DNA of 37,754 nucleotides from an uncultured Planctomycetales bacterium (lineage in GTDB: Bacteria > Omnitrophota > Gorgyraeia > Gygaellales > Profunditerraquicolaceae). Of this stretch, positions 8,201 through 23,960 are shown piece by piece (the stretch's first letter is position 1; each line of letters starts with the position of its first letter). The stretch is taken from contig CAZAPM010000004.1 in the NCBI GenBank assembly GCA_964487475.1, positions 1 through 37,754 on the forward strand, in the 5' to 3' direction. The position numbers and the translations under genes are program-made. A model generated the notes under the pieces. The model had not been told where the DNA came from and did no database searches. It worked only from the letters and a program-made list of their open reading frames with translations.

Positions 8201-9363
8201 TTGATCTTCGCGAGCACTCCCAATGCCGCCTGGGAGACCACGGACGCGGGAAAATTGGAGTACTCGCGCATGAAAGAAATGTCCTCCAGCAGCCCGCGCA
8301 TGGCCAGCGCGACGTCGACCCCCAGCAGATGATACCGCTTATCCCGGTCGTTGCGGCGGCGCAGCACCTCGAAACGCACGAGATCGTGGCAGACCTTATG
8401 GTCCAGCCTGTCGAACATGACGTATCTTCCGGACATCTCCCCGCGCGGGGTACGGAACCACCGCCAATACGTATTGCCCAGGCTCTCCAGGGTATCGGTG
8501 CGCAGATGACGGGCCACGGCCCTGGGCTCATAGACGGTGTGATACCCGAGCAGGCGCACCTTCATGCTCATATCGGTATCCTCGTGGTTGACCCGGAAAC
8601 GTTCGTGGTATCCTCCGGCATCGATGAGCGCCCGGCGCCGGAACACGGAATTGCATCCGAACACGGAAGGAGGATCGACCTTGCGTGCCTCGCCCCGCTC
8701 CTGCGCCATGTGCACCTGTCTCCACTGATCGACCGCGGTCAGGGTCAGGGATTCGATAAGCCTTCCCCCCGCGGCCGCGACATCCTTTGCGAGGACCTCC
8801 CGCATGAGATGCTCCAGCCAGAACATGTCCGGCACCACATCCGCATCCACGCTGGCGATAAAATCCCCCTGCGCCCGGGCAAGTGCGGTGTTGCGTGCCG
8901 CGCTTAAACCCTGATTACGGGGATGCCGCACCACCTTGACCGGGAAACGCCCGGCGAGCCGTTCGCTTCCGTCCGTCGAGGCGTCATCGATCACCAGTAT
9001 CTCTTTGACGGGATAGCTTTGCCGGCAGACCCCCTCCAGGCAACGGATGAGGTACTGCCGCGAATTATACGAAGGCACGTAAAAAGTCACCGCGTGCCGC
9101 CGGGCCAAAGGATGCGCCGCCGCCTCGCGCCGCGCGTTCCGGACCTGCGGCTGGCGCGGATCGAGCGCAAGAGAACGGGCATACCACCGGGCGGCGCTGT
9201 AATAAAGCCCCTGCGCATCCAGGGAAGCGGCGAGAAGGTTGCAGTGCGCCGGCTCCAGCCCGCGTAACGCGTCGGCACGCAGATAGTACGCACAGGCATA
9301 TGCATGCTCCCTGCGCGCGCGCATGGATTCGGCAACGTTCAGATAGTACTCCCGTGTATTCAT
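5212..9363 (-). CDS. Multidomain TPR / GT2 / B12-binding radical SAM / GT4 fusion (1383 aa)
   Basis: N-terminal TPR-like helices; GT2 motifs (VPSYNS, VIDDASTD, GLSAARN, VDADV, EDTD); B12-binding region (VLVNPP, LVGPH, GEYE); SRGCPYGCSFC radical SAM motif with FDDDTF and GVESG; C-terminal GT4 (PSLWDEPFGIVALEAMAAG). Confidence 0.9.
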   Translation of the reverse strand: MNTREYYLNVAESMRARREHAYACAYYLRADALRGLEPAHCNLLAASLDAQGLYYSAARWYARSLALDPRQPQVRNARREAAAHPLARRHAVTFYVPSYNSRQYLIRCLEGVCRQSYPVKEILVIDDASTDGSERLAGRFPVKVVRHPRNQGLSAARNTALARAQGDFIASVDADVVPDMFWLEHLMREVLAKDVAAAGGRLIESLTLTAVDQWRQVHMAQERGEARKVDPPSVFGCNSVFRRRALIDAGGYHERFRVNHEDTDMSMKVRLLGYHTVYEPRAVARHLRTDTLESLGNTYWRWFRTPRGEMSGRYVMFDRLDHKVCHDLVRFEVLRRRNDRDKRYHLLGVDVALAMRGLLEDISFMREYSNFPASVVSQAALGVLAKIKSALVKSEVPQEVCEHLFAAVHPCVERLGKEAAATAKAWGILPFRSDAASNGLCERWRALLPQAPVKFVEKAGRGWERWLRMPREYWLMVRVSLSRIKEESDRERLYAQGFRVVLVNPPWGGKKRIGVRAGSRWPFTMERGDQRVPGYVPFPFFMAYATAVLLRQGVAANLIDAVAEGLTGEECLERVRGAQPRMVVLETSAPSFEEDMAWVRKLKAFGPEPIVVLVGPHVSSQAGEILAAHPEIDLALVGEYESSLSRLVRCVREGRSVRNVEGVVYRSLGVVKSSPRRGSVPDLDALPYPERATLPMYNYNDPGSGVPSPALQVMASRGCPYGCSFCLWPQVLYGSRKYRSRDPRRVAREISGAVEAYGFAGVYFDDDTFNIGASRMRALCRAMRNEGISVPWSAMARADAGNRSVLAAMKAAGMRSIKFGVESGCQELVDACGKSLDLRRVEEAVRWCTQLGIKVHLSFTIGLPGETKDTVARTIEYCIKLNPDSAQFSLTTPFPGTAYHAQLAKEGRLRAASWKDYDGDRSSIVRTREMSGRDLEAALALARSRWQRHVLSRQLRAQAHAAAEPEAAAVERVPGPRAEKARIAFVDLMFRWPPGGGAGYDLKEVATGLARRGYGVELFVPYYDKLFVRGEVSGRLEFPVHQISFTQETFLPSLVGARIRKAVDAFDPDYVFIGDGWSLKPHVFSALQGYRRYLRFYAYENVCLRENGIRFRDHAVCPHDFLRRRQECLACMRSCIQGPGAGGVGAKEFMLSDGFSPSFHRRVKDSVSQAHGVIVYNGKLAKLLRPFNRNVRVIPSGVSLADFPAVPPAAGKKTMLRILISGRVNEEEKGLQVLLAACAKLYRSRKDFLLTATTLGKVRAPFVDYAGWSSREEALALCRDADICVIPSLWDEPFGIVALEAMAAGKPVVASKCGGLQDIVIDGKTGFLVPPGDVDALAERLNRLLDSASLRAALGAAGRRRVAAQYTWDAVIEGQYLPLFRDV

Positions 9364-11102
9364 GGCAACAGTACTCCTTGAGAGGCAAACAGGTCTGCGA
9401 ACTCCGCGTTCGACCGCAACAGCTCCCGGCCTTCTCCCTCGACCAGGCCCCGGGATCCGAAAAAGAATACCCGCTGCGCCGCCACCACGGTAGAAAGGCG
9501 GTGGGAAACGGTGATCACGGTCATGTGCGGATACTGCGCGGCGATGTTGCGCATAATGGTCTCCTCGCTGTACGCATCCATGGACGCCATGGCTTCATCG
9601 AGCACCAGCACCGAGGGTCGCTTCACCAGGGCCCTGGCCAGGGCCACGCGCTGTTTCTGGCCGTCGGAAAGCTTGCAGGCGTCCTCTCCGATGACGGTAT
9701 CATACCCCTTGGGCAACGCCGCGGCGAATTCCTCCACCAGGCATATCCGGGCCGCTTCCTCGATATCCGCGCCCGGCTGCCCGTATGCGATATTGCGCGC
9801 CAGCGTGTCATTCCACAGGAACGGCTCACGGAAAGATACCGCGACCCGGGACACCAATTCCCTGCGGGAAATTTCCGGCAAGGGGACCCCGCCCAGGGAC
9901 AACGCCCCTTTCCAGGGCTCGTGCAGCTTAAGCAACAGCAACACCAGCGTCGTCTTTCCGCACCCCGATCTTCCGGCAAAAGCCACCCGGCTTCCCGCAG
10001 GGATATCCAGGCACACTCCGGAAAGCACGGGGGTCAGACTGCGGTACCCGAACCAGACATCCTGAACGCGCATCCCCAGGGGCTGCGCGGACGGCAGCCG
10101 GCAGCGCAACGCGGAAACCCGCTCCTCGACCGGGAACTGCTGCCAGATCTGCAAGAGCTGCCGGTACGAAGTCCGCGCATAAAGGAACGATTCGAACGTA
10201 CGGGTGAACTCGAGCTGTATCTCCATGATCTGCCCGAGATACAAGGTGAGCGCGCCCAACGTACCGATGCTCGCCTCCCCCCGCACCACCTGCAGGCCCG
10301 CCCAAAGGGTGAACACTCCGGTGAGCACTCTCACCAGAAAGCTATTGACGAACTCCCCTCCCAGATCGACGCGCGATACCTTGATGCTGGTGCGGATGAA
10401 TGCGATGCGCTTGGCCAGGTACGTCCTGGTCTCGTAGATCTCCGCCGCGAACGCCTTGACCAGCTTGATGTGCAGAAAGAACTCCGCCATGCGGCGGAAC
10501 ACCGTCTCGCAATCCCGGTAAAGGCCGTCCCAGAGCAGCATACGGCGGCGGCGGAAGCGGGAATTGAGCAAGAACAGCACCGGACCGACCAACAACGCTC
10601 CCAACGCAAGCTTCCACTGCAAAAAACAAAGCATGGTCATGATCGCCAAGGCCCGCAGCACCTGCACCCCCATGGCCGTGACCTTCATCCCCAGGAAATC
10701 CGCCACCTGGTCCACGTCATGGTTGATGCGGTAAAGATGCTCCCCCTGGCTCTTGTCGTCGAAATAGGACAACGGCAGGGACGCGAGCCGGGAGAACGTG
10801 CGCCGGGAGATGACAAAACCGAGACGCAATTTCAGAGTGCTCTCGAAATACCCCTTGATCCCCGTCGCGGCTCCGCTGACGATGAACGTCGCGGCCCCGA
10901 TCATGGTATAGACCACGAAAGAGCCGACATTATGGTTGAGGAACGAATGGTCTATCACCAGCTTGGCCAGCAGCGGGTTCAGGAATCCCGACAGCAGGGC
11001 CACAAGGGACGCGCAGGAGATCAGCACGATCTCCTTACCGTACCCGCGCAAGAGCCTTACCATCGCCAACCCCTCTTTATACGCTTGCGGTGGAACAGGC
11101 AC
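9360..11102 (-). CDS. ABC exporter, fused permease + ATPase (no C39 peptidase domain)
   Basis: TM domain then Walker A GRSGCGKTT, signature LSDGQKQR, Walker B VLVLDEA, H-loop VSHRL. Start uncertain (11108/11102/11063). Confidence 0.9.
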   Translation of the reverse strand: MPVPPQAYKEGLAMVRLLRGYGKEIVLISCASLVALLSGFLNPLLAKLVIDHSFLNHNVGSFVVYTMIGAATFIVSGAATGIKGYFESTLKLRLGFVISRRTFSRLASLPLSYFDDKSQGEHLYRINHDVDQVADFLGMKVTAMGVQVLRALAIMTMLCFLQWKLALGALLVGPVLFLLNSRFRRRRMLLWDGLYRDCETVFRRMAEFFLHIKLVKAFAAEIYETRTYLAKRIAFIRTSIKVSRVDLGGEFVNSFLVRVLTGVFTLWAGLQVVRGEASIGTLGALTLYLGQIMEIQLEFTRTFESFLYARTSYRQLLQIWQQFPVEERVSALRCRLPSAQPLGMRVQDVWFGYRSLTPVLSGVCLDIPAGSRVAFAGRSGCGKTTLVLLLLKLHEPWKGALSLGGVPLPEISRRELVSRVAVSFREPFLWNDTLARNIAYGQPGADIEEAARICLVEEFAAALPKGYDTVIGEDACKLSDGQKQRVALARALVKRPSVLVLDEAMASMDAYSEETIMRNIAAQYPHMTVITVSHRLSTVVAAQRVFFFGSRGLVEGEGRELLRSNAEFADLFASQGVLLP

Positions 11103-12144
11103 GCGCACCCTCCTTTGCCGCCATATGGTCAGCCAGCTCGCAGTAATACGGCACGGGAAGCTCCATCTCTCCCGTCTCCAACAGGGCTTTGCCGGGACAG
11201 GATTCGCACCAGGCCCGTTTCCGGCACATACGGCAGGCGGAGCCCTGCGCCGGCCTGCGGGATCTCAACCAGGCCATCGCCTTCCGGTACGCATCCCCGA
11301 CCCCTGTCGACAAGACATCGAACGCGGGAGTGCGCAGGGTCACGCACATCACCAGCCTGCCGTAAGGGTCGATGCGTATCCCCTCCCCCCCTTCGACCGC
11401 ACAGGCAAAGACCTCGGAGTCCTTTTTTATCCGGCAGGTCTCGTCGCTGAACGCGCCGAACCCGAACTTCCGCACCAGGTCCCGGGCCGGCACCCGCAAT
11501 GCGCATGGCGCGGTATCGCCGTTGAGACGGGGAAGCACGATGAAATCAAACGCAACGTGACGTGTCCATGTGCGGAGGAATGCCCGCAGGGAAGCGATCT
11601 CGTGCGCATTATCCCTGGTGACAACCGCCTTAATGCGCAACGGGATACTTCCGCGGACCATCCTTTCGAGCCCCCGCACCGCCTTCCCGAATGACCCGGG
11701 CACTCCGGTGATCCTCTCGTACGTGCGGGGATCCGCCCCGTTGACCGTGACCTCCACGCAGAACGGAGGCCGCTTCTCCATCAATCTGGCCATGGCCGGC
11801 GAAAAGGAATAGGCATTGGTGAACACCGTGATCAGGAACCCCTGTGCTTTCGCATAAGAATATATCTCGGGGAAGTCCTTCCGCATCAAGGGGTCCCCTC
11901 CGGTAAAGCACAGCCAGGGAGCGCCGCATCCCCTGATCTCCCGTATGACCTTCTTGACCGCAGCGGTATCCAGCTCGCGGGCGACATGCTCCGGCGTATT
12001 ATAGCAATCACTGTAGCAGTGGCGGCAATGCAACCCGCAGGAAAAGGTCAGCTCGAACTCGCAAAGGGAAAAACCGCCGTCTCCGGCCTTACGGGAATGC
12101 GCCCTTTTACTGAACGTCTTATATGCAAGCGTTTTCATCGTCAT
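11077..12144 (-). CDS. Radical SAM/SPASM peptide maturase #4
   Basis: ELTFSCGLHCRHCY, FTGGDP, and a 7-Cys SPASM domain (C..IDPYG..C...CRMC-x5-CESC-x18-C). Confidence 0.9.
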   Translation of the reverse strand: MTMKTLAYKTFSKRAHSRKAGDGGFSLCEFELTFSCGLHCRHCYSDCYNTPEHVARELDTAAVKKVIREIRGCGAPWLCFTGGDPLMRKDFPEIYSYAKAQGFLITVFTNAYSFSPAMARLMEKRPPFCVEVTVNGADPRTYERITGVPGSFGKAVRGLERMVRGSIPLRIKAVVTRDNAHEIASLRAFLRTWTRHVAFDFIVLPRLNGDTAPCALRVPARDLVRKFGFGAFSDETCRIKKDSEVFACAVEGGEGIRIDPYGRLVMCVTLRTPAFDVLSTGVGDAYRKAMAWLRSRRPAQGSACRMCRKRAWCESCPGKALLETGEMELPVPYYCELADHMAAKEGARACSTASV

Positions 12145-13552
12145 GAGGGACCAGATATCCCTGCGTTACCAGCGTGCGCACTGCGCGGCACTGCTGCCCG
12201 TTATCCGGGAAGAAATGCAACCGGGCGGGAACACCGGTCGAACGGCAGCACCCGGAGAGCGCCGACCACTCCCTTTCAGAAAACCGCACCCGGCGAGAAA
12301 CTGCGCCTGCGCGCTCCTCTACCTCCCTGGCCCTGTCCCGGCACCGCACGTCGAAGAAACCGGCCCACGCACTGCCCGGCGCCACCTCGGGCGGCAACCC
12401 GGCAGACGCGAACGCTCCCTGGACGCGCATGACCGACCCCGGTCCGCTGCATACCCTTTTTCCGGGATACGGCGATTCCGCGGGGACACGGGACAGATAC
12501 GACAGCGCCCGGCGCAACCCTCCCGGCGCAGCCGATTGCTCGCGACGCACGAACTGTCGGAAAAGATGCGCCTCTGCGGCAGATACGCGCAGCGCACCCC
12601 GCATGGCACGAGCCAGGTCCGAAAGCGAGAAACGCACGCCATGCCTGGTCGGATACGTGCGTACCCGGCCTGCGGGGAATGCCGCGGCCACTGGGGCCAA
12701 ACCGGCGAACTCGGTCACTACGGGCGCCACTCCGCACGCCATGGCTTCCCGCACCGCGATCCCGAAATTCTCGTCCTCGTGCACCGACGGGCAGACACAG
12801 GCGTCGGCCGACCAGAACAACGCCCGCAGGTCCTCCCTCCCCAGGGAAGGATGCACCCTGATCCTGCCCGCGCCCGGAAAATCCCGCGCCTCGCGCGCCA
12901 GCCATTGCGCAAAACCGCCTTGCTGCGCGTCATCACCGGCAATGGTGATCACCCATTCCGCAGGGCCGTACCATTGCGCGCACCGCAGGAACTGCAGCAC
13001 GCCTTTCGAAGGGAGCAGTCTCCCGGCATATACCAGATGCCGCTGGGTGCTGCGCACTCCCCACGCCCTGCGGCCGGCGCTGCGCTCCCGTGCTCCCGGG
13101 ATACGGAAGAACTCCGTATCCACCGGAGGAGGGAACACCTCCATGCGCGGTGCGTCCTTCCCCAGGAACGCGCGCATCCGGTCCCTCTGGAACTGCGTGG
13201 AAACCAGCTCGACCTGCGCCTTCGGCAAACGCCTGGCTGCCAGCAGGTGCTGCGGCAGAAGGTGGGAACCCAAAGAAAGCCTCAGCAGCCTGTGCCGCAC
13301 CCGGCCCCAGCGTTTCCCTCCGAAGAACCGGTTGGTGACGATCAGCACCGCGTTCGGTTCTTTCAACAATCCCTCCAGAAGAGATTGGCCGATCAGGGTT
13401 TCCATGACGGTGACCCGGGCCATCCTCTCCAGACAGGAAAAAAAATACCTCTTATACCGGCGAACCGAAACGCTCTCTCCCTGCCCCGGTCCCGGGCACA
13501 TCCTGCTGCCGGCACTCAAATAATCCTCTCTGAACACATATCCCTGCATCAT
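12119..13552 (-). CDS. Glycosyltransferase family 4
   Basis: YAGRLLPSKG and CPSVHEDENFGIAVREAMACG. Start refined to ATG 13552 (ATGA overlap). Confidence 0.85.
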   Translation of the reverse strand: MMQGYVFREDYLSAGSRMCPGPGQGESVSVRRYKRYFFSCLERMARVTVMETLIGQSLLEGLLKEPNAVLIVTNRFFGGKRWGRVRHRLLRLSLGSHLLPQHLLAARRLPKAQVELVSTQFQRDRMRAFLGKDAPRMEVFPPPVDTEFFRIPGARERSAGRRAWGVRSTQRHLVYAGRLLPSKGVLQFLRCAQWYGPAEWVITIAGDDAQQGGFAQWLAREARDFPGAGRIRVHPSLGREDLRALFWSADACVCPSVHEDENFGIAVREAMACGVAPVVTEFAGLAPVAAAFPAGRVRTYPTRHGVRFSLSDLARAMRGALRVSAAEAHLFRQFVRREQSAAPGGLRRALSYLSRVPAESPYPGKRVCSGPGSVMRVQGAFASAGLPPEVAPGSAWAGFFDVRCRDRAREVEERAGAVSRRVRFSEREWSALSGCCRSTGVPARLHFFPDNGQQCRAVRTLVTQGYLVPHDDENACI

Positions 13553-14505
13553 GATCCCACCCGAGACCTGACAAAACCGACGACCGTACCGCGTTTGGCC
13601 GCCTCCAGGACCGCGCTGGGGACGCGGGAAGAAAAATCCTGCATGAGCTCCGTCACCGCGCGCACCAATTCCCCGTCCCAGAAAGGCCACATCACGTTCT
13701 GCGAAAGCATCTGCCAGGCCCGGGCGGGGGACAACGCGCGCATGCGGTGCGCGCGACGGGCCCGGCGCAGAAAGAACAGACGGCCGACTTTTTCGCTGCG
13801 GCAGAACCTTCCGGGCTCGGAAAGATACTCCCCGAACTCCCCGAACCAGGGAGAAGAATACATGCGGTACCCCGTGTTCCCCCGGATCACGAACACCCTC
13901 TCATCGTTCAATACGGCCGCATCCTTGCGCGCATACCACCACCGGGCCAACGTGCTTTTCCCGCTTCCGGAGCGACCCGAGAACACCAGTCCTCCTGCCC
14001 GCGTATCGGAAACCGCGCTGCCGTGGATCACGAAACCCCGGCGATGGTACGCCAGATACTGCAGCAGGTACACCTCCAGGAAATAATACACCAGTTCGTA
14101 CGGCGCCCAGGTGCACGGCGCTCCCCGCGGCACCACCAGCACCGCGTGCGCCTGCTTCCTTCCCGGATCGTACCGCACCAGGTACTCCCTTCCGACGAGC
14201 CTGCTCTCATAGCAATACCCCTTTCCGCAACGGAACAGGTTCCAGTTCGCCCTGGCCTCATGCGGGACATAGGCGCAGAACAAGCGCTTGCCTTTACGCC
14301 ACGCCGGGACGCGGTGCGCAACCTCCACCCGTACGCGCAGATCGGGCGGGCGGCGGCTGCGGGAACGGAAGGTCCTCAGGCCCCGGCGCTCCACCTGCCC
14401 CTCCCCTTTCCCCGGGCCGGTACGCAGCGGGAAACGGCTCGTAAGCTCCACGAGCACCCCGGCGATCATCAACCTCACCCGCGGTTCTTTCGACATGGCG
14501 CTCAT
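13549..14505 (-). CDS. HPr-kinase-related P-loop protein (ScmC/PadeK-like)
   Basis: IHGSAV....GGLVFSGRSGSGKSTLA...VLNDERV, plus SSPWFGE. Start refined to ATG 14505 (ATGA overlap). Confidence 0.8.
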   Translation of the reverse strand: MSAMSKEPRVRLMIAGVLVELTSRFPLRTGPGKGEGQVERRGLRTFRSRSRRPPDLRVRVEVAHRVPAWRKGKRLFCAYVPHEARANWNLFRCGKGYCYESRLVGREYLVRYDPGRKQAHAVLVVPRGAPCTWAPYELVYYFLEVYLLQYLAYHRRGFVIHGSAVSDTRAGGLVFSGRSGSGKSTLARWWYARKDAAVLNDERVFVIRGNTGYRMYSSPWFGEFGEYLSEPGRFCRSEKVGRLFFLRRARRAHRMRALSPARAWQMLSQNVMWPFWDGELVRAVTELMQDFSSRVPSAVLEAAKRGTVVGFVRSRVGS

Positions 14506-15371
14506 ACCGGAGGAGCGGACGCATACACCAGCCGGTCCACTCCCATCCGCGCAATACGTGACTCGTCGACCGAATCGTTGCGGTAAAAATGGGTATTCCC
14601 CCTCAACAGCAGGGGCAGAGGGAACGACGCATGCTCCAGGGAGAACACGTAACGGGCGCACTGCTGACTGCAGGGCCGGCGTTTCCGCATCGTTGATTGC
14701 GGCCCGTCGCACCCCGCGCTGGGACAGTAGAAGGTCGTGCTGACATAGACGAACGGCACATACAACGATGCCGCGCGCACCCCCTGTCCCAGGCTCACCT
14801 TAACCCCGTGCAACGGATTGTCCAGCTCGATGCGGCGCACCCCCATCCCGGAAAGGCACTTCTGCAGGACGGGGACCGACCCGGCGTTGCTGCCCCGGTA
14901 ATACTCATCCATGGCCGGCGGCAGCTTCACCTGCATGACCAGGACGCGGTCGGAGTGCTCCGGGTCTGCGTGACGCATCATGGCCGCGGGAGCGCGCTTA
15001 AGGACCCGGGCGAGCGTAGGACAGCGTTTCTGTTTGACCAGCAGCCTTCCCAAGACCGGCTCCAGGGAAGGAAAACGCTCATGCAGCAGCCGCAGCACGC
15101 CCCAGTCATTAACCACCACTTCGCAGGCACCGGCCTGCCCGGAGAGCGCACGGCAAAGCTCCTCCACCCGGTCCAACCCCTCATCGGTCACATAGGGAGT
15201 CACCAACGTGAAGCGCATATCCGCATCATGCGTCCGGCGCACCAGCGCCTCCAGCGCAGGCAACGACGGGATCCGCCGCTCGCAGAATTCGCTGCCAAAA
15301 TACACCCGGTCATACCCTTCGGGCAACGGCCGGTCAAGGGCTTCCTGAGAAAGGAAGAGCGCTTTTTCCAT
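14502..15371 (-). CDS. U32-family Fe-S protein, UbiV-like subunit
   Basis: DRVYFGSEFCERR (cf. UbiV D.IYLGE.VC.KR), EVVVNDWG, RRIELD, C-terminal YC...C....C...C. Start 15371 (TGATG overlap). Confidence 0.7.
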   Translation of the reverse strand: MEKALFLSQEALDRPLPEGYDRVYFGSEFCERRIPSLPALEALVRRTHDADMRFTLVTPYVTDEGLDRVEELCRALSGQAGACEVVVNDWGVLRLLHERFPSLEPVLGRLLVKQKRCPTLARVLKRAPAAMMRHADPEHSDRVLVMQVKLPPAMDEYYRGSNAGSVPVLQKCLSGMGVRRIELDNPLHGVKVSLGQGVRAASLYVPFVYVSTTFYCPSAGCDGPQSTMRKRRPCSQQCARYVFSLEHASFPLPLLLRGNTHFYRNDSVDESRIARMGVDRLVYASAPPV

Positions 15372-16399
15372 CAAAACCCCCTCACCTGGGGATAATAACA
15401 ATTGTTGCCCCGGCAGGGACCGGGGTATCCGAACGCTTTCCGGTAGTTATCTTCGACCGCCTGGAAATATCCCTCGCGGGTCAGGTGCGCGTCCTGCAAC
15501 AGAAGGCTCGACTGCTTGATGAACCGGGTATCCAAGAGACGCTTCCCGGCATCCAGCTGCCTGCCCACGATCTTCACGGAAGCCACTCCCGCCCGCGCAA
15601 GGTCGTAGAGCGCACAGGCTCCGCACTCCGTGCCGTCGCTCAAGTGCTTGAACATCGTCGGCCTTACGGCAGATCCCGGCAGGGATCCGCCCGTCACCGC
15701 ATCGTTGACTCCGACCTGGTATTGCAGCGCGCAGGCATCACCGTGAACCTGCAGGTCATAGCTGGCGAAGACGTCCAACCGGCAGGAATCCTTCTGGCGC
15801 CGGGGGGGCATATGCCTGCCGGCATACGCATGCATGAACGTGCAGAAACCGTCGATATGTACGCATAACGTATTGAGCACGAACGCTTCGAACTCTACGG
15901 AGGGGAATGCGTTGATCATCCGGCCCATCCCGCCGATATCGGTCTGCCGGTCGAACACGATCCTGGCTGCGCCCAGATCGGAAAAGAACGCGCAGGCCTG
16001 GGAATTGAACACCGTCCCGCCGGTCGAGACGTGCAGACGCGGCACCTGAGACTGTTCCCGCAGCGTGAGCAGCAGGCCCAGATCCGCGACGATATAGGCA
16101 TCGATGGGCAAACGGCTCAACCGGCGGAGGATACGCGCCAGCAGAGGATACTGCTCCCGCACGTACAATCCGTTGACCGCCAGCGCGACCGGAACGCCTC
16201 TGCGGTGCGCCAGGTCCAATGCCCGGCCCAGCTCCTTGAGGTCGGTAAAATTACTCGCCCCTCCCTTTCTCTCGAACTCCAGACTGGTGTACTCTTTCTC
16301 CCAGGCCGGATCAAGATAGCCGCAATACAGCTCGTCCGCGCCCGCATCGATGAGCGGGACGACCTCCTGCGCGGACTTAAAGGGCACGTTGATCTTCAT
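15371..16399 (-). CDS. U32-family Fe-S protein, UbiU/RlhA/TrhP-like subunit
   Basis: IDAGADELYCG, IVADLG, HVST, LCVHIDGFC, GDAC, CGAC, GVASVKIVGRQ (cf. KIEGR). GAGGA RBS before ATG 16399. Confidence 0.85.
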   Translation of the reverse strand: MKINVPFKSAQEVVPLIDAGADELYCGYLDPAWEKEYTSLEFERKGGASNFTDLKELGRALDLAHRRGVPVALAVNGLYVREQYPLLARILRRLSRLPIDAYIVADLGLLLTLREQSQVPRLHVSTGGTVFNSQACAFFSDLGAARIVFDRQTDIGGMGRMINAFPSVEFEAFVLNTLCVHIDGFCTFMHAYAGRHMPPRRQKDSCRLDVFASYDLQVHGDACALQYQVGVNDAVTGGSLPGSAVRPTMFKHLSDGTECGACALYDLARAGVASVKIVGRQLDAGKRLLDTRFIKQSSLLLQDAHLTREGYFQAVEDNYRKAFGYPGPCRGNNCYYPQVRGF

Positions 16400-16406
16400 C
16401 GGGTCC

Positions 16407-17390
16407 TCAAAACAATGCCGGGAGCTTTTCCCATCCCGGAAGGCGTTTGACCACATGCACCAGGCAGCCGCCCGAACATCCGCCGCTGCGCATATGCGTG
16501 CACGAAAAACACTTGTCCAGCGCTCCCAGCCGTTTCAGATGCGCGGAGCGCCTCAGGAAATACGCATCCAGTTCCTGTTCGTCGCGAAAATCCTTCAAAG
16601 AGAGCCCCGCCGAGGTCTTGGCGGCCATCCCGTAACAGCGGTATACCCGCAGGTCCGGGGAGACTTCCACGGGAGGAAAACAGTTGGTCTCGGGAACGAA
16701 CCCTACGTTCTCCTTCAACAACCGCAGCTGCGGACGGGTGAACGCGCAACGGATGAAGCCGTAATCCGAGAACCAGGTGATGCCCCTGGCCCTGCTCTCC
16801 TTGGAAAAAAGCACCATCCGGCGCACTGCCCGGGCATGGTCTGCGAGAGGGATGAATTCGTTCGCTCCCTCCAGGGAAGGACAGGAGATCGCCCAATTGA
16901 TCGTACGCCTCAAACGGTACCGGTCTATCAGGTCATACAGGAACGCCGGGTCAAAATCCAACCGGGAGATCCGGAAGCTCAGCACCGCCTTTTCCCCCAG
17001 GGATCCCAGCGCAAAGAACAGGCGCTCCCTGTCCGCCGCGGAATACTCCCGGGGATGGCGGATATTCACCAGCACGTCGACAAGGGAATCCCTGCCCGAA
17101 AGGAATTTTGCGGTCGAGGATCCCATCACCCCGTTGGAGAAGAGCGCGATACGGAATCCGTGCGCTTCGACCGTGCGGTAGATCTTCTCGAAACGGGGAT
17201 GCAGTGTCGGTTCTCCTCCGATCATACGGAAGGTGTCCTGCCGGGACGCTTTCAGGAATGCGATGGCGGCGCGCAGATTACGCGCGGAGATCGCCAGCGC
17301 GGAAGGCCGCTTCTTCGCCAGGCGCATCGCATCCTTGGCAAAACAATAGGGACATCTCAGGTTGCAGTAATACGTCAAGGCGAAGTTCAT
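16407..17390 (-). CDS. Radical SAM protein #3 with SPASM/twitch-like domain (divergent from #1/#2/#4)
   Basis: TYYCNLRCPYCF, IGGEPT; C-terminal C-x14-C...CFSC-x7-CSGGC. Start refined to ATG 17390. Confidence 0.88.
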   Translation of the reverse strand: MNFALTYYCNLRCPYCFAKDAMRLAKKRPSALAISARNLRAAIAFLKASRQDTFRMIGGEPTLHPRFEKIYRTVEAHGFRIALFSNGVMGSSTAKFLSGRDSLVDVLVNIRHPREYSAADRERLFFALGSLGEKAVLSFRISRLDFDPAFLYDLIDRYRLRRTINWAISCPSLEGANEFIPLADHARAVRRMVLFSKESRARGITWFSDYGFIRCAFTRPQLRLLKENVGFVPETNCFPPVEVSPDLRVYRCYGMAAKTSAGLSLKDFRDEQELDAYFLRRSAHLKRLGALDKCFSCTHMRSGGCSGGCLVHVVKRLPGWEKLPALF

Positions 17391-17397
17391 CGGCTTC

Positions 17398-18438
17398 CTA
17401 ACGTTCCCCGGAACGGACTGACTCGGCAAATTGCCTGCTGCGCGGGTCGCACGCCGAAAGGTCCCGGGAGAAGAGCCATCCTCTGGCCGGGCACCACGTA
17501 CAATAAGGCCTCAGCCGGCACCCCGCGCAATCCCCTGCGCCATCCCGCTGTATCCTGCGGCGCAATTTCTCTTCCATAGACCTCCACGCGCGCGCAAAAG
17601 AGGTCCCGCCCAGCGCGATGCGCGGATACTCCAAAAGCACACACGGCTTCAGCGCTCCGTCCGGAGTGATGGCGCACTGTGCACGCCCCGCTCCGCAGGG
17701 GAAACGCACCCGCGAAGGGACCGGCTCCTGAGCGCGCACCTTACGGGGGACTTTCCCGGATGCACCCGTCTCGCCGCATCCCGCGGATCCCGTCGCGACC
17801 GCCGCATACGCAAACGGCCCCTCATCCCCGTCCAGCCTCGGCTGCAGCATGTCATCGAAACGGCACTCGGCACCGTGCTCCCTGGCGAAACGGGCGATCT
17901 GCGCACGCTCCCGCGCGTTCTCCCGCAGCACGCAACACTTGAACCCCATCGGCACACGCCGCGTGCGCAACAGAGACACCGCCCGCATCACCCGCGCGAA
18001 CGCACCGCGCGTCCCGGTGATCCGGTCGAACGGCCTCTCGCGCAAAGAGGGGATGGTGATATCCACCCGCTGTACCCCCGCAGCGGCCAGCCTGTCCGCG
18101 CAAGGCGCATCGATCAGCGACGCATTGGTATACACCTGCACCGTAAACCCCCGGCGGCTCGCATACGCCAAAAGAGGGAAAAAACCGGGCCGCAACAGCG
18201 GCTCCCCTCCGGTGAACCCCAGCATCAGCGCGCCGGCATCCGCTAATTCGTCAAGCAGCGCCCTCATCCGGGATAAGGGGACTTCTTTTATGCTGCGGTA
18301 CGAACGCGGCACGTAACAATGGCCGCAGGAAAAATTGCACCGGTACGTCAGCTCGCACATGACCCGCAACGGGATGCGTTTCTCCGCGGCTTCCCGGCGG
18401 CGGGCGGCGAGATACTCCCGCAGCGCTATGGCGCGCAT
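17398..18438 (-). CDS. Radical SAM/SPASM peptide maturase #2
   Basis: ELTYRCNFSCGHCY, FTGGEP; SPASM CGAG..C.ITPDG..PC...CAGC-x5-CTWC. Start refined to ATG 18438. Confidence 0.9.
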   Translation of the reverse strand: MRAIALREYLAARRREAAEKRIPLRVMCELTYRCNFSCGHCYVPRSYRSIKEVPLSRMRALLDELADAGALMLGFTGGEPLLRPGFFPLLAYASRRGFTVQVYTNASLIDAPCADRLAAAGVQRVDITIPSLRERPFDRITGTRGAFARVMRAVSLLRTRRVPMGFKCCVLRENARERAQIARFAREHGAECRFDDMLQPRLDGDEGPFAYAAVATGSAGCGETGASGKVPRKVRAQEPVPSRVRFPCGAGRAQCAITPDGALKPCVLLEYPRIALGGTSFARAWRSMEEKLRRRIQRDGAGDCAGCRLRPYCTWCPARGWLFSRDLSACDPRSRQFAESVRSGER

Positions 18439-19496
18439 GCGTACGCGCCCTGCGCTGCAGCCATCTGACAATAATATTCCACTGCCGACTCGTCATCCCC
18501 CGTCTCCAGCGCCGCTCGCGACGGACACCAGAAACATTCGTAACGCCGGGCACAATCACGGCAGAGACTCTCCCCCCTGAAACGCTCCCGGGAGACTTCC
18601 CGGATCACCTCGAGGTACCTGGAAAGCGGCGCGCGGTCGACATGGAACGCATGCGCCCGGGAGAACTGGCAGAACTTGACAAAACCGAACGGGTCGATGA
18701 CACACTGCTGCTGCCAGCTGTTGCACGCGTATTTCGCCTCCCGCGCCTGCGCCCCTCCCTGCGGGACACACACCCGCGGCATTCGCAGGTCCGCCTCCAT
18801 CTCCTTATCCTCGCGCACCATCTCCTGCAGCTGCGCGGGGGTCACGCGATGCGCGCACGGTTCAAGGCCGCCATCGAGACGGGGCACCACCACATAATCG
18901 TATTTGAAACGGTGCAGGCCGTTGCCCGGCCGGCCGAATAATTTCTCCGCAGACCTCTTGATCGCCGCGATCTCATGACGGTTCTCCTTAAGACACACCG
19001 CTTTCACGATCGTAGGGACCCCTCTGGACTTTAACCGGGAAAGGCCGGCATGCGCGCTCGCGCACGCGCCAGCGACGCCGGTCACCGCGGCATAGGTTTT
19101 TTCCGAAATGCCGTAGAGAGAGGCCTCGACGCACACCGGAGGAGAAGCGCCAAGGGCGCGCGCCACGGGTTCATCCACCAGCGCCGCATTGGTGAACACC
19201 GTGACCAGCAGTCCTTTGCGCTTCGCGTACCGGTACAATGCCAGAAAATCGCGGCGCAGCAGGGGCTCTCCTCCGCTGAACGTCACTCCCAGGCAGCCCA
19301 TACCGACCAGCATGTCCAGGACGCGTTTCCATTGCGAAGTCGAAAGTTCGTCGGAGACGTTTCCCGCGCCGCGGCAATAACAATGCACGCAGGAAAAATT
19401 ACACCGGTAGGTCAATTCAATATGACAATATGCGGGGAAAGGATTGCGCCGGAAAAGCGACCTCCGGGCTCGGCAACCCAAGGTAGTATTTTTCAC
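18426..19496 (-). CDS. Radical SAM/SPASM peptide maturase #1
   Basis: ELTYRCNFSCVHCY, FSGGEP; 7-Cys SPASM C-x17-C...CRDC-x5-CFWC-x18-C. GTG 19496 chosen to avoid overlap with the precursor (start uncertain). Confidence 0.9.
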   Translation of the reverse strand: MKNTTLGCRARRSLFRRNPFPAYCHIELTYRCNFSCVHCYCRGAGNVSDELSTSQWKRVLDMLVGMGCLGVTFSGGEPLLRRDFLALYRYAKRKGLLVTVFTNAALVDEPVARALGASPPVCVEASLYGISEKTYAAVTGVAGACASAHAGLSRLKSRGVPTIVKAVCLKENRHEIAAIKRSAEKLFGRPGNGLHRFKYDYVVVPRLDGGLEPCAHRVTPAQLQEMVREDKEMEADLRMPRVCVPQGGAQAREAKYACNSWQQQCVIDPFGFVKFCQFSRAHAFHVDRAPLSRYLEVIREVSRERFRGESLCRDCARRYECFWCPSRAALETGDDESAVEYYCQMAAAQGAYACAP

Positions 19497-19533
19497 GACC
19501 GGAAGAAACAGGGCAAAGGACCTAAAGGAACTC

Positions 19534-19743
19534 TTAAGAAGAGGCGGAAAAACTCGCCCACGGGCCAAACCCGCTTACCGTGGATTTGGAGAATGCGGTC
19601 TGACAATATGAGGTAAAGGTATTTCCGGTCCCTGCACCGCCATACCTGCTCACCGTGCTGCACTGACACGCCAACACCGCTTGTTCGGGGTTAAGCTTGA
19701 TCCTGGTGATCTCCGGCTTGAACTTCGACTTTTTCTTCATCAC
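19534..19743 (-). CDS. Putative RiPP precursor peptide (69 aa)
   Basis: MMKKKSKFKPEITRIKLNPEQAVLA-CQCSTVSRYGGAGTGNTFTSYCQTAFSKSTVSGFGPWASFSASS. Lies between PqqD and rSAM #1; GAGGGAG RBS; start overlaps the PqqD stop (GTGATG); charged leader and Ser/Thr/Gly/Cys/aromatic core. Confidence 0.85.
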   Translation of the reverse strand: MMKKKSKFKPEITRIKLNPEQAVLACQCSTVSRYGGAGTGNTFTSYCQTAFSKSTVSGFGPWASFSASS

Positions 19744-20120
19744 GCTCTCCCTCTTCGGCTGTTTTTTTTGCTGACGGGAATGTTCCTGTCCCTGGATGCC
19801 GCCTTAGCCTTAGCCTTAGCCTTGGCCTTAGCCTTGGCCGGCGCCAGTGCCTTGATCTGATGCAGCTCCCGGACCAGCTCTTCCATCAACGCGATCGCCT
19901 TGGTCTCGGTCACTTCGAATTCCCCGGTCACCAGGGTGACGATCTCACCCATGGTCCTTTTTCCGTTTATCAGCTCCCAAACCCGGGCAGCGGAAGCGTT
20001 CAACGAGTATATGGAATTGATATCTTCTGTGGATTTCAGGATAGGCAGGAGGATTATCTCTTCATCGATCCGCCGGGTCACCATATTGGGATTTTTAGCC
20101 AGCACTAACTTAGTGTCCAT
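19740..20120 (-). CDS. Stand-alone PqqD-family RiPP recognition element with basic C-terminal tail
   Basis: VTRRIDEEIILLP...IYSLNASAARVWELINGKRTMGEIV...EFEV is a typical PqqD pattern; strong GAGGAGG RBS. Confidence 0.92.
   Translation of the reverse strand: MDTKLVLAKNPNMVTRRIDEEIILLPILKSTEDINSIYSLNASAARVWELINGKRTMGEIVTLVTGEFEVTETKAIALMEELVRELHQIKALAPAKAKAKAKAKAKAASRDRNIPVSKKNSRRGRA
19801..19836. repeat. In-frame hexamer tandem repeat (GCCTTR)x6 encoding (KA)6
   Basis: gcctta gcctta gcctta gccttg gcctta gccttg. Confidence 0.9.
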
Positions 20121-20180: not shown

Positions 20181-20600
20181 TTATGGCGTTACGCGGGGCC
20201 GTCCGGCCCTCTTCAAGGCCGCCTTGCCCCTCCTGGCCCAATAACGCAGCCGTGCTGCCAGAAGCGCCGCTGCGGGCATCCCCAGGACGAAGACCTTCCC
20301 GCCCCGGGAAACCGCGGCGACCGTCCCGAGGATATCTGACGGCCGGACTTCGGCATCGAAATGCAGACTGTTATCTCCCCGTACCCGGTAGATGCTTCGA
20401 CCTTCGCGCACGACGATACGATGGACTCGGTGACACACCAAAGTCCCCGCAGGCTGCGTCCGGTACAGGATCACATCGCCTTTACGGGCCCTGTCCGAGC
20501 CCCGGCATTCTACCAGCAGCGTATCACCGGGCCGGATGAGCGGTTCCATGCTATTGCCCGTCGCACGGTGCCATGATAATCCGTTATGCCGCGTTTCCAC
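20181..20600 (-). CDS. Soluble S24/S26-family peptidase (Ser-His type)
   Basis: GNSMEPLIRPGD, GDVILY, VCHRV, RGDN..FD; no N-terminal TM. GTG 20600 has a GGAGG RBS. Confidence 0.85.
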   Translation of the reverse strand: METRHNGLSWHRATGNSMEPLIRPGDTLLVECRGSDRARKGDVILYRTQPAGTLVCHRVHRIVVREGRSIYRVRGDNSLHFDAEVRPSDILGTVAAVSRGGKVFVLGMPAAALLAARLRYWARRGKAALKRAGRPRVTP

Positions 20601-21666
20601 CCCTGCCCCTCCATTTTTCCCCGGCCAAACCTGCCGCATCCCGGGCCCGGCGCCGGAACGCCAAACTGCTTGCGGCATAATACCAGGCCATAAAATGAAG
20701 CCGCCCCAGACGCGATCCTCGGTCGGTCCCCGACCACAGGCGCTGCGGATGCAGCCACGGCCCGAGCGCCGTTCGCCTGGCCCAGGAAGGACGCGGCACC
20801 TGGGCGGAAAGGTCCTGCGCGGCGGCGCATCGGAAAAGGCGCGCCGCCGAGATCAACGCAAAATAAGGCTGATAGCCTCCGTGCCGGCCGCACCACTCCC
20901 GCACCTGATCCCGGCGCAACGAACCCTGCCGGGAATGCAACAGTTGGGCCAGATCGAAAAAATAACGGGTTTCCAACGGCTCTGTCTCGCTTATCGCCAC
21001 CAGCATCAGATACCACGCCAGGTCCTCGTCGCTCGGCCAACGCACGGCAGTATCGTGAACGGAGATCTGCCGGCTGCGCTCCCAGAAAAGCCCTTCCTCG
21101 CACGACACCGAGGCGCTGCGCAACCCGGCATGCACTTCCACCATCATCCCTTTCTCCGGAGCGACGTCCTTGAGGGCGCATACCGCCTGCTGCGAACCCC
21201 TGCCTCCGGGGTAAGACACGTCATATCCGTTGCGGCGCATGATCTCGCATGCGAAGGAAAAATCCTCTGGCCGGACCAACACATCGCTATCCACCGGAGC
21301 CCGGCGCATCGCGCAATCGCCGTACAAATACCAGGACAAGAGCGCCCCCTTCAAAGGGATGACCTCCATCCCCTGCTGCGCGAATTCCCGCACCAGGGCC
21401 AGGATCCGTTGCAATGCGCGCTCCGCTGCGAGCGCATTGAAGATGACCTGTTCCTTGAGACGGTCCCGGGCTTCCCGGGAGACGGACTCGACACCGCAGG
21501 ATCTCATCTGCGCGTACGCTACAGAAAATAGCCCGGAGCGCAGCGCCAGGTCCACGAACTCTTCCGATTCGCGGCCGGAAAGACGGGGAACGGAGAAGGA
21601 CGATACGGGAGAGGCGGAAAAACAGGATTGCAGCAGCCGCTGCAAAAGAAGGCTCGAGGCTTTCAT
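20584..21666 (-). CDS. Nucleotidyltransferase family protein (NTP_transf_5-like)
   Basis: IPLKGALL...YG....R...DSDVLV and VEVH motifs. Start refined to ATG 21666. Confidence 0.85.
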   Translation of the reverse strand: MKASSLLLQRLLQSCFSASPVSSFSVPRLSGRESEEFVDLALRSGLFSVAYAQMRSCGVESVSREARDRLKEQVIFNALAAERALQRILALVREFAQQGMEVIPLKGALLSWYLYGDCAMRRAPVDSDVLVRPEDFSFACEIMRRNGYDVSYPGGRGSQQAVCALKDVAPEKGMMVEVHAGLRSASVSCEEGLFWERSRQISVHDTAVRWPSDEDLAWYLMLVAISETEPLETRYFFDLAQLLHSRQGSLRRDQVREWCGRHGGYQPYFALISAARLFRCAAAQDLSAQVPRPSWARRTALGPWLHPQRLWSGTDRGSRLGRLHFMAWYYAASSLAFRRRARDAAGLAGEKWRGRGGNAA

Positions 21667-21700
21667 GGGAGCACGCGCGGGGATACCTGCGCCGGACGGT

Positions 21701-22573
21701 TTAGAAGAACGATTCGGGGACCATGACCGTGTCCCCTTCCTGGAGGAGTACGTCACGGGATACGTCCCCGCTGCGCATGATATCGGCGACCGGCACCGGG
21801 ATGACTTTCTTCACGCCTTTTTCCATGCGCACCACCCGGGTCCCGTTCTGGGCGGCGGTCGAGGTGAATCCGCCGGCCAACCCTACGGCCTCGCTGGCCC
21901 GCAACCCTTTGCGCATCGTATATACCCCCGGCTTGGCCACCTGGCCCATGACGGAAAAGCGGCCGTACTCCTCGACCACGATGATATCGTCACCCTTGAT
22001 CTCGATATCATAGTCGGTACGGTCAAGGATACGCTCGTAGTCGACGTAAAAAGTGTCCTTGCGGCCCCGGTTATCGCGGATGATCTTGACCGCAGCGGTG
22101 TTGGCGGAGTCGGTGAACCCTCCGGCCAGCGCCACCGCCTGGGTGAAGCTCAAGCGTTCCTTAAGCTGGTACGACCCGGGACTGCGGATCGCGCCCAGCA
22201 TGGATATCTTTTTCGAATACTCTTTGACGAACGCCCGCACCTGCGGGTTGACCAGGTAATCCTGCGCCAGGAGTTCCGTGATATTGGCCTCCAGCTCCCG
22301 CAGGGTCAGGCCGACCGCCCGGATATTGCCGAGATAAGGATAGTTCACCGTCCCGTCCTGGGCCACCCGCACCGTGGTGGAGAAATCCTCTTCCCCGTAT
22401 ACGGTGATCTCGAGGATATCGTCGACAGAGATCAGATACTCCTTGTTCAGCCCGGACCGCTGCATATCCCGGTCATTCTGCGCGTCGGAAGACACGGTCT
22501 TCGCCACGATCAGCCCCAGACACATCATCGCCAGTACCGCATGCCTGACAAACACCTTCGAGTGCGTACGCAT
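21701..22573 (-). CDS. wza: Polysaccharide export OPX protein (Poly_export + 2 SLBB), short form
   Basis: Signal peptide; YLISVDDILEITVYGE..VRVAQDGTVNYPYLG; two SLBB repeats (AGGFT); ends VPESFF. Confidence 0.92.
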   Translation of the reverse strand: MRTHSKVFVRHAVLAMMCLGLIVAKTVSSDAQNDRDMQRSGLNKEYLISVDDILEITVYGEEDFSTTVRVAQDGTVNYPYLGNIRAVGLTLRELEANITELLAQDYLVNPQVRAFVKEYSKKISMLGAIRSPGSYQLKERLSFTQAVALAGGFTDSANTAAVKIIRDNRGRKDTFYVDYERILDRTDYDIEIKGDDIIVVEEYGRFSVMGQVAKPGVYTMRKGLRASEAVGLAGGFTSTAAQNGTRVVRMEKGVKKVIPVPVADIMRSGDVSRDVLLQEGDTVMVPESFF

Positions 22574-22591
22574 ATATATTCTCCCGAACCG

Positions 22592-23926
22592 TTAGAATTT
22601 AGCCGATGAAGTGATGGTCACCAGGTTGACGTTGTGATTTTCCTCGATGCTCGAGCTGACCCGCTTACGGGAATACCCGAACGAGAAATCCAACCACTGT
22701 TTGAAGGCATAGGAAAGGCCCAGCCCGATGGTACGGGTGTTCTGGTCCTGCGAAGGTATGGAGGAGCTCGGGAAGAGCTCGTCCGTCACCACATAACTGA
22801 ACCCCAGATTAAGCTTGGGGTTGAAGGCCAGCCGGTGGTTCGCGGCGAAGGTGTAGGAATTCGTGACGGCACGCGCTTCGTCGTCAACGAAGGTCTCCCT
22901 CAGCCGCGAAAAGGCGAAGGAAAAATTCGTACGGTCGCTGAAACGATATCCGATGTTCTGGGTAAACGCAAAGGCATGGGAATCGTCGCCGGATTTGGCG
23001 TCAGTCTCGCCGTAATCGATCCCGCTGGAGACGCTGACCTTGGGCGAAAGCACCCCGGCGAGGGACAGACCCCACTCCTGGCCGCGGGAATCCCCGCTGT
23101 GCCCCCGGGGATGCATCTCCCGGCTGATGGCATAATCCATGGAAAGCCTGGTCCTGGTACCTAAGCGCAGGAACTGGGCCACGGAAAGCACGTCGGACCA
23201 CATATTATCGTTGCGGTTGACCGGCTCGTTGAAGGTATCGAGACGCGCATACCCGACGTTGAACCCGTAGCGGTTGAACGCCCGGCCTAAAGAAGTGCTG
23301 AAGGAATTCTCTATCGAGCGGTCCATCTCCGTATCGCTCCAGCCGAGCTTTTCGGTGTTGATATAGTTACTGGTGATGGAATTGCCGATGGTGAAACTGT
23401 ACAACCCCAGGCTCATCGTCTGGTCCAGGGAAGCGGTCAGCGAACCGGCGTTATCCCCGGCGCGTTTCTGGTTATACGTCGACTCCAGGTGCATGTCAAA
23501 GGCCGTACTTTTACCCAGCGAGACATTGCTGGTCCTGAAACCCGGAGTGATGGAATAGATCCAGTCCGATTTCTCCGGAAGGGTGTCTTCGTCAAGATTG
23601 TCGTTGAAAGAGACCTGGGTGATGAGATACGGGTGGGATTTGGAGAAAAAGCCCTTGAGCGGATTTTTGCCGGTTTTGGCGGTCCGCCGCTCAGACGCCC
23701 CGGAGGGAGGGCTGCCGGCGCGCGCGACCCTTCGCTCGACAAGCTTAAGCTGCGCTTCCTGCATCGATTCCGCCATGGCGGCATCGCGCTGCTGCATCCT
23801 GTTCAGGGTCTGCATGACCAGGCGCTCCCTGCCGGGAGAAACCGGCACCTGACCCCACGCGGGAGCCGCAGAGAAAAAAAAAGCTCCCGCAACAAATGCC
23901 CCTGCCACGGTAAGCGTTTTTCTCAT
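22592..23926 (-). CDS. EPS-associated outer-membrane beta-barrel protein
   Basis: Signal peptide (AAPAWG), alternating hydrophobic strands, SDWIYSITPG, C-terminal Phe; adjacent to wza. Start 23926 or 23944. Confidence 0.8.
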   Translation of the reverse strand: MRKTLTVAGAFVAGAFFFSAAPAWGQVPVSPGRERLVMQTLNRMQQRDAAMAESMQEAQLKLVERRVARAGSPPSGASERRTAKTGKNPLKGFFSKSHPYLITQVSFNDNLDEDTLPEKSDWIYSITPGFRTSNVSLGKSTAFDMHLESTYNQKRAGDNAGSLTASLDQTMSLGLYSFTIGNSITSNYINTEKLGWSDTEMDRSIENSFSTSLGRAFNRYGFNVGYARLDTFNEPVNRNDNMWSDVLSVAQFLRLGTRTRLSMDYAISREMHPRGHSGDSRGQEWGLSLAGVLSPKVSVSSGIDYGETDAKSGDDSHAFAFTQNIGYRFSDRTNFSFAFSRLRETFVDDEARAVTNSYTFAANHRLAFNPKLNLGFSYVVTDELFPSSSIPSQDQNTRTIGLGLSYAFKQWLDFSFGYSRKRVSSSIEENHNVNLVTITSSAKF

Positions 23927-23960
23927 CGGTCCGGATGCTGACAATGATCCTTTCCTGTTC

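Follow-up and report, generated by a model that had tools for sequence, protein, structure and literature searches.

Within the 37,754-nucleotide stretch of DNA analysed here (the window), a small gene very likely encodes the RiPP precursor of a large, unnamed and very diverse family, and we are all but certain that it is the precursor for the adjoining cassette (Table 1), which, judged from its genes, is the LPP gene set plus three radical-SAM enzymes. In the pathway we propose, the adjacent PqqD/RRE would hold the precursor leader, the three radical-SAM/SPASM enzymes would likely convert the conserved cysteines to thioether cross-links, the HprK-like kinase would likely phosphorylate the last Ser, and the NTP_transf_5 nucleotidyltransferase would likely add a sugar to the phosphate; the S26 peptidase would likely cut after Ala21, followed by predicted ABC export. 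This would yield a stapled phosphoglycopeptide whose body is hypervariable and which would probably work at the cell surface together with the capsule. The locus would work like an LPP/pseudomycoidin tailoring line with an added SPASM trio. We consider this explanation as a whole evenly balanced, every chemical step being deduced from an observed gene, its conservation, its cassette and intact catalytic motifs.

Table 1. Features of the precursor locus, in order along the minus strand. Counts refer to the 48 loci with a CxC-type precursor.
Feature	Position	Strand	Remarks
Wza-like polysaccharide export protein and outer-membrane barrel	21701..23944	-	upstream flank
NTP_transf_5 nucleotidyltransferase	20584..21756	-	PF14907, 115.9 bits; DxD motif; PsmN/LppN-like by family; 18/48
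S24/S26 peptidase (archaeal SpI/SipW-like)	20181..20678	-	predicted leader peptidase; Ser43-His83-Asp102; 17/48
PqqD/RRE, discrete	19740..20120	-	PF05402, 45.5 bits; translationally coupled to precursor; 34/48
Precursor peptide gene	19534..19740	-	68 aa + stop; single copy in genome
F7-x-P9-x-I11	19708..19722	-	predicted RRE-binding motif
K15-L23 (KLNPEQAVL)	19672..19698	-	near-invariant block; spans predicted cut A21-V22
C25-x-C27 Cys pair	19660..19668	-	predicted cross-link donors
C46, third conserved Cys	19603..19605	-	variable spacing
S68, C-terminal Ser	19537..19539	-	predicted phosphorylation and phosphoglycosylation site
rSAM/SPASM paralogue 1	18426..19568	-	true start probably near 19499; 35/48
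rSAM/SPASM paralogue 2	17398..18471	-	31/48
Accessory rSAM, different type	16407..17429	-	no orthologue in fetched loci
Accessory pair: peptidase-U32/UbiU-like and unannotated partner	14502..16456	-	PF01136; both in 7/48
HprK-like kinase	13549..14499	-	His, Walker A and ND[DE]R motifs; PEPCK/HprK fold; 29/48
Accessory GT4 glycosyltransferase	12119..13690	-	3/48
rSAM/SPASM paralogue 3 of conserved trio	11077..12144	-	30/48
MsbA-like ABC exporter	9360..11108	-	only membrane and ATPase domains found; 26/48
GT2 / B12-dependent rSAM / GT4 fusion	5212..9363	-	accessory or glycan pathway; B12-rSAM genes in 10/48
Wzc-like chain-length tyrosine kinase	519..2378	-	downstream flank

The open reading frame at 19,534-19,743 (minus strand), which an initial annotation made from the sequence had read as a RiPP precursor with an RRE-type leader, is real, and its translation agrees with the one given there. 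The likelier start is the ATG at 19,740, which yields 68 residues, follows a GAGGGAG ribosome site 6 nt upstream and overlaps the PqqD stop as TGATG; the database copy of the precursor (P0001) is likewise 68 residues long. A promoter and terminator scan returned one weak hairpin at chance level. Homologues of the precursor adjoin PqqD and radical-SAM genes and their conservation is biased towards the leader; the check on these two points, which had been put forward along with the RiPP assignment, refuted nothing.

A word-seeded search yielded 15 proteins including the query, whose alignment served as the profile source; in it 17 columns, all of them located from F7 to C27, do not vary, which is far beyond chance. 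The profile matched 862 cluster representatives (50% identity clusters) at E <= 0.001, of which 150 are the matches listed, and it found matches in 31 of the 401 genomes of the window's phylum. It also brought in 71 loci from species-representative genomes, 55 of which carry an Omnitrophota or Omnitrophica title, while the remaining ones come under Elusimicrobia, Planctomycetales and further names; the precursor family belongs mostly to Ca. Omnitrophota. A same-family genome (L006) and a locus titled Ca. Omnitrophota (L045) have identical precursors, which suggests this phylum for the window. No Pfam family was found for the precursor, no NCBIfam model scored above its cut-off in the 55 members tested, and a PDB sequence search with the precursor gave no match; the best protein atlas match (0.88), an unnamed Omnitrophota-rich cluster, serves as a lead only.

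From 167 matches in the loci, 139 precursors were kept, with 4 dropped as incomplete, 8 as lacking the motif and the rest as duplicate or masked. These 139 distinct complete locus precursors comprise 74 of a CxC type, 55 of which were taken into alignment A2, and 64 of a CC type. Throughout the family the leader FxPxI-TRxKLNPEQAVL, the CxC (or CC) pair, a third Cys and a C-terminal Ser/Thr are conserved, and little else. The C-terminal residue, which is absent from the initial annotation's description of the precursor, is Ser in 146 and Thr in 9 of the relatives in the protein set (155/155, background 22%), a set picked by a profile that includes the tail columns, although the matched stretch mostly stops around position 55, ahead of the tail. 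In the locus precursors Ser/Thr is final in 130 of 139, compared to 21% in the core, and in 70/70 full-length CxC cores; six of the nine precursors without it have cores of only 10-19 residues. The second Cys is found in 154/155 relatives, the CxC pair is invariant in 55/55 CxC-type sequences, and the third Cys, present in 70 of the 74 CxC cores, lies 7-36 residues past the second. Further conserved columns of the full-length CxC cores are an aromatic residue at Cys1+3 (58/70; 137/155 in the protein set) and Gly at +6 (44/70), with weaker biases elsewhere; the window peptide has Ser at both positions. Besides the C-terminal residue, the CxC cores contain no further fixed Ser/Thr column, and across the family the core length ranges from 10 to 81 residues.

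The CC subfamily (e.g. L085:1997-2182) combines a W-x-x-P-x-I leader with S-C-C-D, Arg/Lys at +6 (53/60), Gln before the third Cys (46/60) and a fourth Cys 4-12 residues later. Truncated precursor copies, with cores of 10-19 residues and no final Ser, stand beside intact ones at L038, L044, L051, L053 and L090, a pattern that would fit a fast gain and loss of copies. In one Omnitrophota genome, 37 different CC-type cores are present in small scattered groups, mostly apart from enzyme genes (L075, L081-L084, L087, L089-L091, L096, L097, L099 and L101), which suggests combinatorial use of one enzyme set.

As counted in the initial annotation, the 44 residues after QAVLA contain 3 Cys, 10 Ser, 6 Thr, 7 aromatic residues (4 Phe, 2 Tyr, 1 Trp) and no Asp or Glu; there is one Arg. 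The family as a whole does not avoid acidic residues, which are missing from only 13 of 74 CxC cores. Both CQ and STVS do occur twice in the core, but their interpretation as functional duplicated motifs did not hold up among relatives: two copies of STVS are found in 1/155 (the window peptide itself) and two of CQ in 3/155. Shuffling the window core 100,000 times gives a repeat of at least 4 residues in 4.7% of cases, which makes the observed one borderline; across the family such repeats occur in 8 of 139 cores compared to 2.5 expected, an excess we read as low complexity. The two STVS codon runs are 9/12 identical and use different Ser codon families. Judged from these sequences the pair may be an old micro-duplication; as a function, internal duplication is not supported.

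In the leader, the predicted RRE-binding residues are nearly invariant (F in 153/155, P in 155/155 and I/V in 154/155 relatives). Hereby FxPxI is one residue shorter than [Y/W]xxPx[L/V/I], whereas the CC subfamily retains W-x-x-P-x-I. The PqqD/RRE profile matches TbiB1 (5v1u), LppB (9x8z) and PbaB1 (9x90). At its C-terminus the window's PqqD also has a tail of some 33 residues with Ala/Lys repeats (19,740-19,850) that is absent from homologues. A Sec signal peptide was rejected because the leader lacks a hydrophobic stretch (11-residue hydropathy at most 0.35). The S26 peptidase scores 50.1 bits with TIGR02228, just below the cut-off of 51.85, and its homologue at L068 reaches 55.1 bits. In the LPP system, the SpI-type Ser-His-Asp peptidase LppS cuts the leader RRE-dependently 13 residues from the leader Pro, the register being Tyr -16, Pro -13, Val -11 and phosphorylated Ser +3 (PMC13381572). 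Setting P9 at -13 places A21, invariant in 155/155 relatives, at -1; in the same register the CC subfamily has Trp at -16, three residues before the P position (44/64), Ile at -11 and Ser at +3 (55/64). Because of this register and the invariant Ala21 we lean slightly, by analogy, towards a leader cut between A21 and V22 (EQA-VL), three residues before the site proposed initially. Glu at -3 is unusual for signal peptidase and counts against this site. The cutting step itself is weakened by the presence of an S26 gene in only 9 of 21 large loci and by two S26 homologues without the catalytic Ser. These homologues (L072:6207-6611 and L062:9159-9464) have Cys or Asn in its place, and the L062 copy looks truncated.

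The initial reading combined a cut after VLA, so that the core starts at Cys25, with aromatic-X-X cyclophanes and thioethers on the duplicated motifs and with modification of dispersed Ser/Thr by the kinase and glycosyltransferases. V-x-A does fit the classical -3/-1 rule, the residue before Cys1 is small in 137/155 relatives, most relatives have the aromatic residue at Cys1+3, and glycosyltransferases are common nearby. However, 18/155 have Q, V, N, Y or F directly before Cys1, and genome loci add W, M and I to this list, compared to Ala21 at -1 in every relative; moreover, the repeats and the aromatic motifs named are unconserved and GT4 recurs in only 3/48 loci. We thus regard this reading as distinctly unlikely and continue with the cut after Ala21.

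In the window the precursor lies between PqqD/RRE and the run of rSAM genes, with the S24/S26 peptidase and NTP_transf_5 upstream; downstream follow the U32 pair, the HprK-like kinase, GT4, a further rSAM, the ABC exporter and the GT2-B12-rSAM-GT4 fusion, the whole set being bracketed by the Wza-like and Wzc-like genes. A cassette of RRE, three SPASM paralogues, HprK-like kinase, NTP_transf_5, S26 peptidase and ABC exporter recurs with the precursor, often among polysaccharide genes. Counts were made over 48 CxC loci, many of them shortened by contig ends, and over the 21 of at least 15 kb (large loci); L054, a duplicate of L053, was excluded from the locus counts and from the genome copy-number and motif/clade analyses. 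The 21 large loci contain the rSAM trio in 18 cases, PqqD in 19, the kinase in 19, the ABC exporter in 17, NTP_transf_5 in 14, S26 in 9 and a glycan gene in 16. Over the 401 genomes, in which related genomes are not independent, the kinase is present in 28 of the 31 that bear the precursor compared to 38 of the 370 others. The window's genome has one copy each of RRE, S26, NTP_transf_5, kinase and precursor, all at the window locus, and the pairing of enzymes and precursor is therefore unambiguous.

The predicted structure of the kinase (pLDDT 91) matches the PEPCK/HprK fold in a fold search, and its profile gives P-loop-level matches only against PDB sequences. Among HprK-like RiPP kinases, LppK and BsfK are reported to act on Ser3 (PMC13381572; PMC10368454), and PsmK phosphorylates the C-terminal Ser, as, according to the citation there, does PadeK (PMC6993621). 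LPP position 3 is occupied by Ala in the window peptide and by residues other than Ser/Thr in 17 of the 29 CxC loci with a kinase, where most kinases nevertheless retain their motifs, whereas all 29 end in Ser/Thr. Because of this distribution the last residue appears to be the likeliest kinase site, and by analogy with PsmK we think it quite probable that the last Ser of the window peptide would be phosphorylated. By an LPP-like logic, the ancestral site would instead be the residue before Cys1, with the C-terminal Ser serving export or another enzyme. In the CC subfamily this residue is indeed Ser in 55/64 and lies 15 residues past the leader Pro position, exactly like the LPP Ser3 used by LppK and its BsfK counterpart, but the Ala of the window peptide and the 17 CxC kinase loci without a hydroxyl residue there leave this alternative very improbable; in the CC subfamily the residue could be a second site. 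The earlier proposal of Ser/Thr as sites for the kinase stays plausible.

For the sugar, PsmN, a nucleotidyltransferase of an uncharacterised family, is required for the hexose on the phosphate (PMC6993621), and by this analogy there is a slightly better than even chance that the window's nucleotidyltransferase would place a sugar on the phosphate. LppN was inactive when tried in a heterologous host (PMC13381572), and the sugar step may therefore need glycan-locus partners.

The radical chemistry is the weakest step. Of the four rSAM enzymes that had been assigned to the precursor, three recur as orthologue groups and the fourth, the accessory one, finds only N-terminal matches of about 23-34% identity in the 71 loci. 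The three form separate clades (36/36, 35/36 and 31/31; supports 0.53, 0.80 and 0.94) and retain the CxxxCxxC SAM-binding and the SPASM auxiliary cysteines. Among solved structures their profile matches the sactisynthase SkfB best (115.7 bits), then PqqE (92.4), and the top NCBIfam matches are NirJ2, MftC and AhbD, all far below cut-off. In a motif-based mapping of the six-position active site the commonest residues are Y/T/F/T/Q/F, Y/T/Y/T/L/M and Y/T/F/T/N/L; the reference profiles are Y/T/I/S/K/L for StsB and F/F/T/S/H/Q for CteB (PMC10288494), and agreement with StsB in this mapping extends to no more than three of six positions (1, 2 and 4). Four-Cys cores (88/139) outnumber three-Cys cores (31/139), and a rule of one enzyme per Cys is thus not exact. 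Because the conserved Cys residues have no fixed acceptor and SkfB is the best structure match, thioethers are favoured, and we judge it just probable on these sequence grounds that the trio would form them. Apart from the aromatic (+3) and Gly (+6) columns, both Ser in the window peptide, no conserved column of thioether acceptors was found. The cysteines named as rSAM sites in the initial annotation remain plausible, whereas the aromatic motifs FTS, YCQ, FSK and WAS lie in the unconserved part; as cyclophane sites they are not supported, there being no conserved aromatic column there and the only conserved one (Cys1+3) being Ser in the window peptide.

Two other roles for the trio have to be weighed against thioether formation. 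A SPASM paralogue might decarboxylate the C-terminal Ser/Thr, or cross-link Cys to it, with the kinase acting on a variable internal Ser/Thr. We keep this reading alive because the best family matches are of the MftC, AhbD and NirJ2 types; MftC decarboxylates a C-terminal residue (PMC10288494), PapB can join Cys to one (PMC12373016), and the peptide tails are rich in Ser/Thr. The match scores, however, are well under cut-off, the CxC cores offer no other fixed Ser/Thr column to the kinase, and a strict hydroxyl residue beside a kinase and an NTP transferase has a direct precedent in PsmK/PsmN, which makes the reading unlikely. Alternatively, the cysteines could be free, in disulfides or in a metal site, and the trio could have polysaccharide or a cofactor as its substrate instead of the peptide, as a commonest count of four Cys, a resemblance to heme-pathway NirJ/Ahb enzymes and the setting in a glycan locus would allow. 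Odd Cys counts are nonetheless frequent (the three-Cys cores above), and the trio travels with RRE and precursor in 18/21 large loci compared to 5 and 4 for Wza and Wzc. A hypervariable core is, moreover, unlike the fixed precursors of cofactors. We consider this alternative improbable, and thioether formation remains the preferred chemistry.

The locus was compared with four described systems. With the LPP system of Bacillota (LppA/K/B/S/D/N) it shares the SpI-type Ser-His-Asp peptidase, a discrete RRE, the HprK-like kinase, the NTP transferase, the MsbA-like exporter, the location in a capsular polysaccharide locus, a conserved leader with a variable tail and the Pro-to-cut register (PMC13381572). 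The leaders differ (FxPxI..KLNPEQAVL compared to YxxPxVLxHQxIxFETxxS), the window family has conserved Cys and a C-terminal Ser/Thr where LPP has Ser3, and its three SPASM enzymes (18/21 large loci) contrast with an LPP pathway described without them and with a linear product (PMC13381572). The main text never uses the term 'radical SAM', and the supplements, as far as these are available, have it a single time, in a column head (PMC13381572). LPP membership was rejected on leader, Ser3 and linearity. Phosphorylated lasso peptides (pseudomycoidin with PsmK/PsmN, PMC6993621; PadeK; Bsf, PMC10368454) share the HprK-like kinase, the NTP transferase, a discrete RRE and a lasso-like leader motif, and in those of the pseudomycoidin/paeninodin type the kinase is reported to target the C-terminal Ser, as proposed for the window peptide. 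The window family differs in its much longer, Cys-bearing cores and in the rSAM trio, and a lasso peptide was rejected: there is no B2 peptidase, PF13471 being unmatched in the genome (94.6% complete), and no Asn-synthase-like cyclase among the window ORFs scanned, PF00733 matches lying on other contigs.

The SynChlorMet cassette likewise combines PqqD with several PqqE/MftC-like SPASM proteins, and kinase homologues match ScmC weakly. It was rejected because ScmA (TIGR04252, cut-off 35) has no match at the locus and a genome best of 12.2 bits elsewhere, ScmD (TIGR04248) reaches 18.8 bits of a cut-off of 100, ScmE (TIGR04250) and ScmF (TIGR04251) 59-80 of 400, and ScmC (TIGR04249) 14-25 of 125 in kinase homologues with no match for the window kinase; the literature searched contains no paper under the name SynChlorMet. 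The StsA/StsB sactipeptide of Streptomyces sparsogenes shares an MftC-like SPASM enzyme, a discrete RRE and alternating Cys near the leader (PMC10288494). The window peptide, in contrast, has no Gly-x-Gly-x-Gly hairpin acceptors of the StsA type, the StsB model scores 62-76 bits against a cut-off of 625, and the StsA family was rejected with 18.8 bits for NF045558 (cut-off 42) and 1/55 members matching at all. The gene-level features of sactipeptides and ranthipeptides, namely a SPASM-type rSAM, an RRE and a Cys-bearing precursor, are all present; as to triceptides, the aromatic motifs named initially are unconserved, and the aromatic residue at Cys1+3 is conserved in the family but missing from the window peptide. 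Omnitrophota clusters and RRE-rSAM clusters are treated only generically in the available parts of PMC9902471 and PMC7470986, and the literature searched, whose coverage stops short of most subscription papers and bioRxiv supplements, contains no description of the precursor family or the cassette.

The backbone gene set is thus already published with LPP; the new part is the added rSAM trio, in a family for which no description was found. The peptide family is common, lacks annotation and occurs in a phylum of which little more than genomes is known, and it bears on questions stated in the LPP paper, namely the role of the NTP transferase and why capsule loci are involved (PMC13381572). If the proposed pathway is true, it would join radical cross-linking and C-terminal phosphoglycosylation, which we found described only separately, and the SPASM trio would provide macrocyclisation tools that tolerate cores of 10-81 residues of nearly unconstrained sequence. 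A more specific possibility is surface display, in which one promiscuous enzyme set would staple hypervariable peptides and anchor each via a last-Ser phosphodiester to the capsule glycan; we regard it as doubtful, and if true it would provide uncultured Omnitrophota with a coat of variable peptides that serves in host recognition or conflict.

The accessory enzymes seem to vary with the composition of the core, which is what one would expect of enzymes that use the peptide as substrate. One of them, a UPF0489-TPR protein (L054:503-2035 and homologues, 23 loci) that carries the arginase-type metal motifs DxHxD and DxD, is present in 19/48 CxC loci and is a candidate peptide arginase, with a weak peptide-arginase match (40 bits, cut-off 350). 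Cores beside it contain on average 8.8% Arg compared to 3.5% in the 15 loci without it (Mann-Whitney p = 0.0002, uncorrected for kinship and truncated loci); in the window's genome only a short TPR match was found. The U32/UbiU-like pair recurs in the cassette, often directly behind extra precursor copies (L036, L038, L044, L050, L051, L058 and L068), and is possibly an oxygen-independent hydroxylase acting on the peptide. Within the window, the fusion protein is unusual in its length of 1383 residues and has no full-length homologue in the fetched loci, and an ORF of up to 422 residues in the glycan locus (3856-5124) has neither a Pfam/NCBIfam match nor a homologue there. A type I phosphodiesterase/nucleotide pyrophosphatase is encoded among the cassette genes of three CC-type loci (L085:4275-6029, L100:6028 and L087:14263), in two of which its gene sits between PqqD and the kinase.
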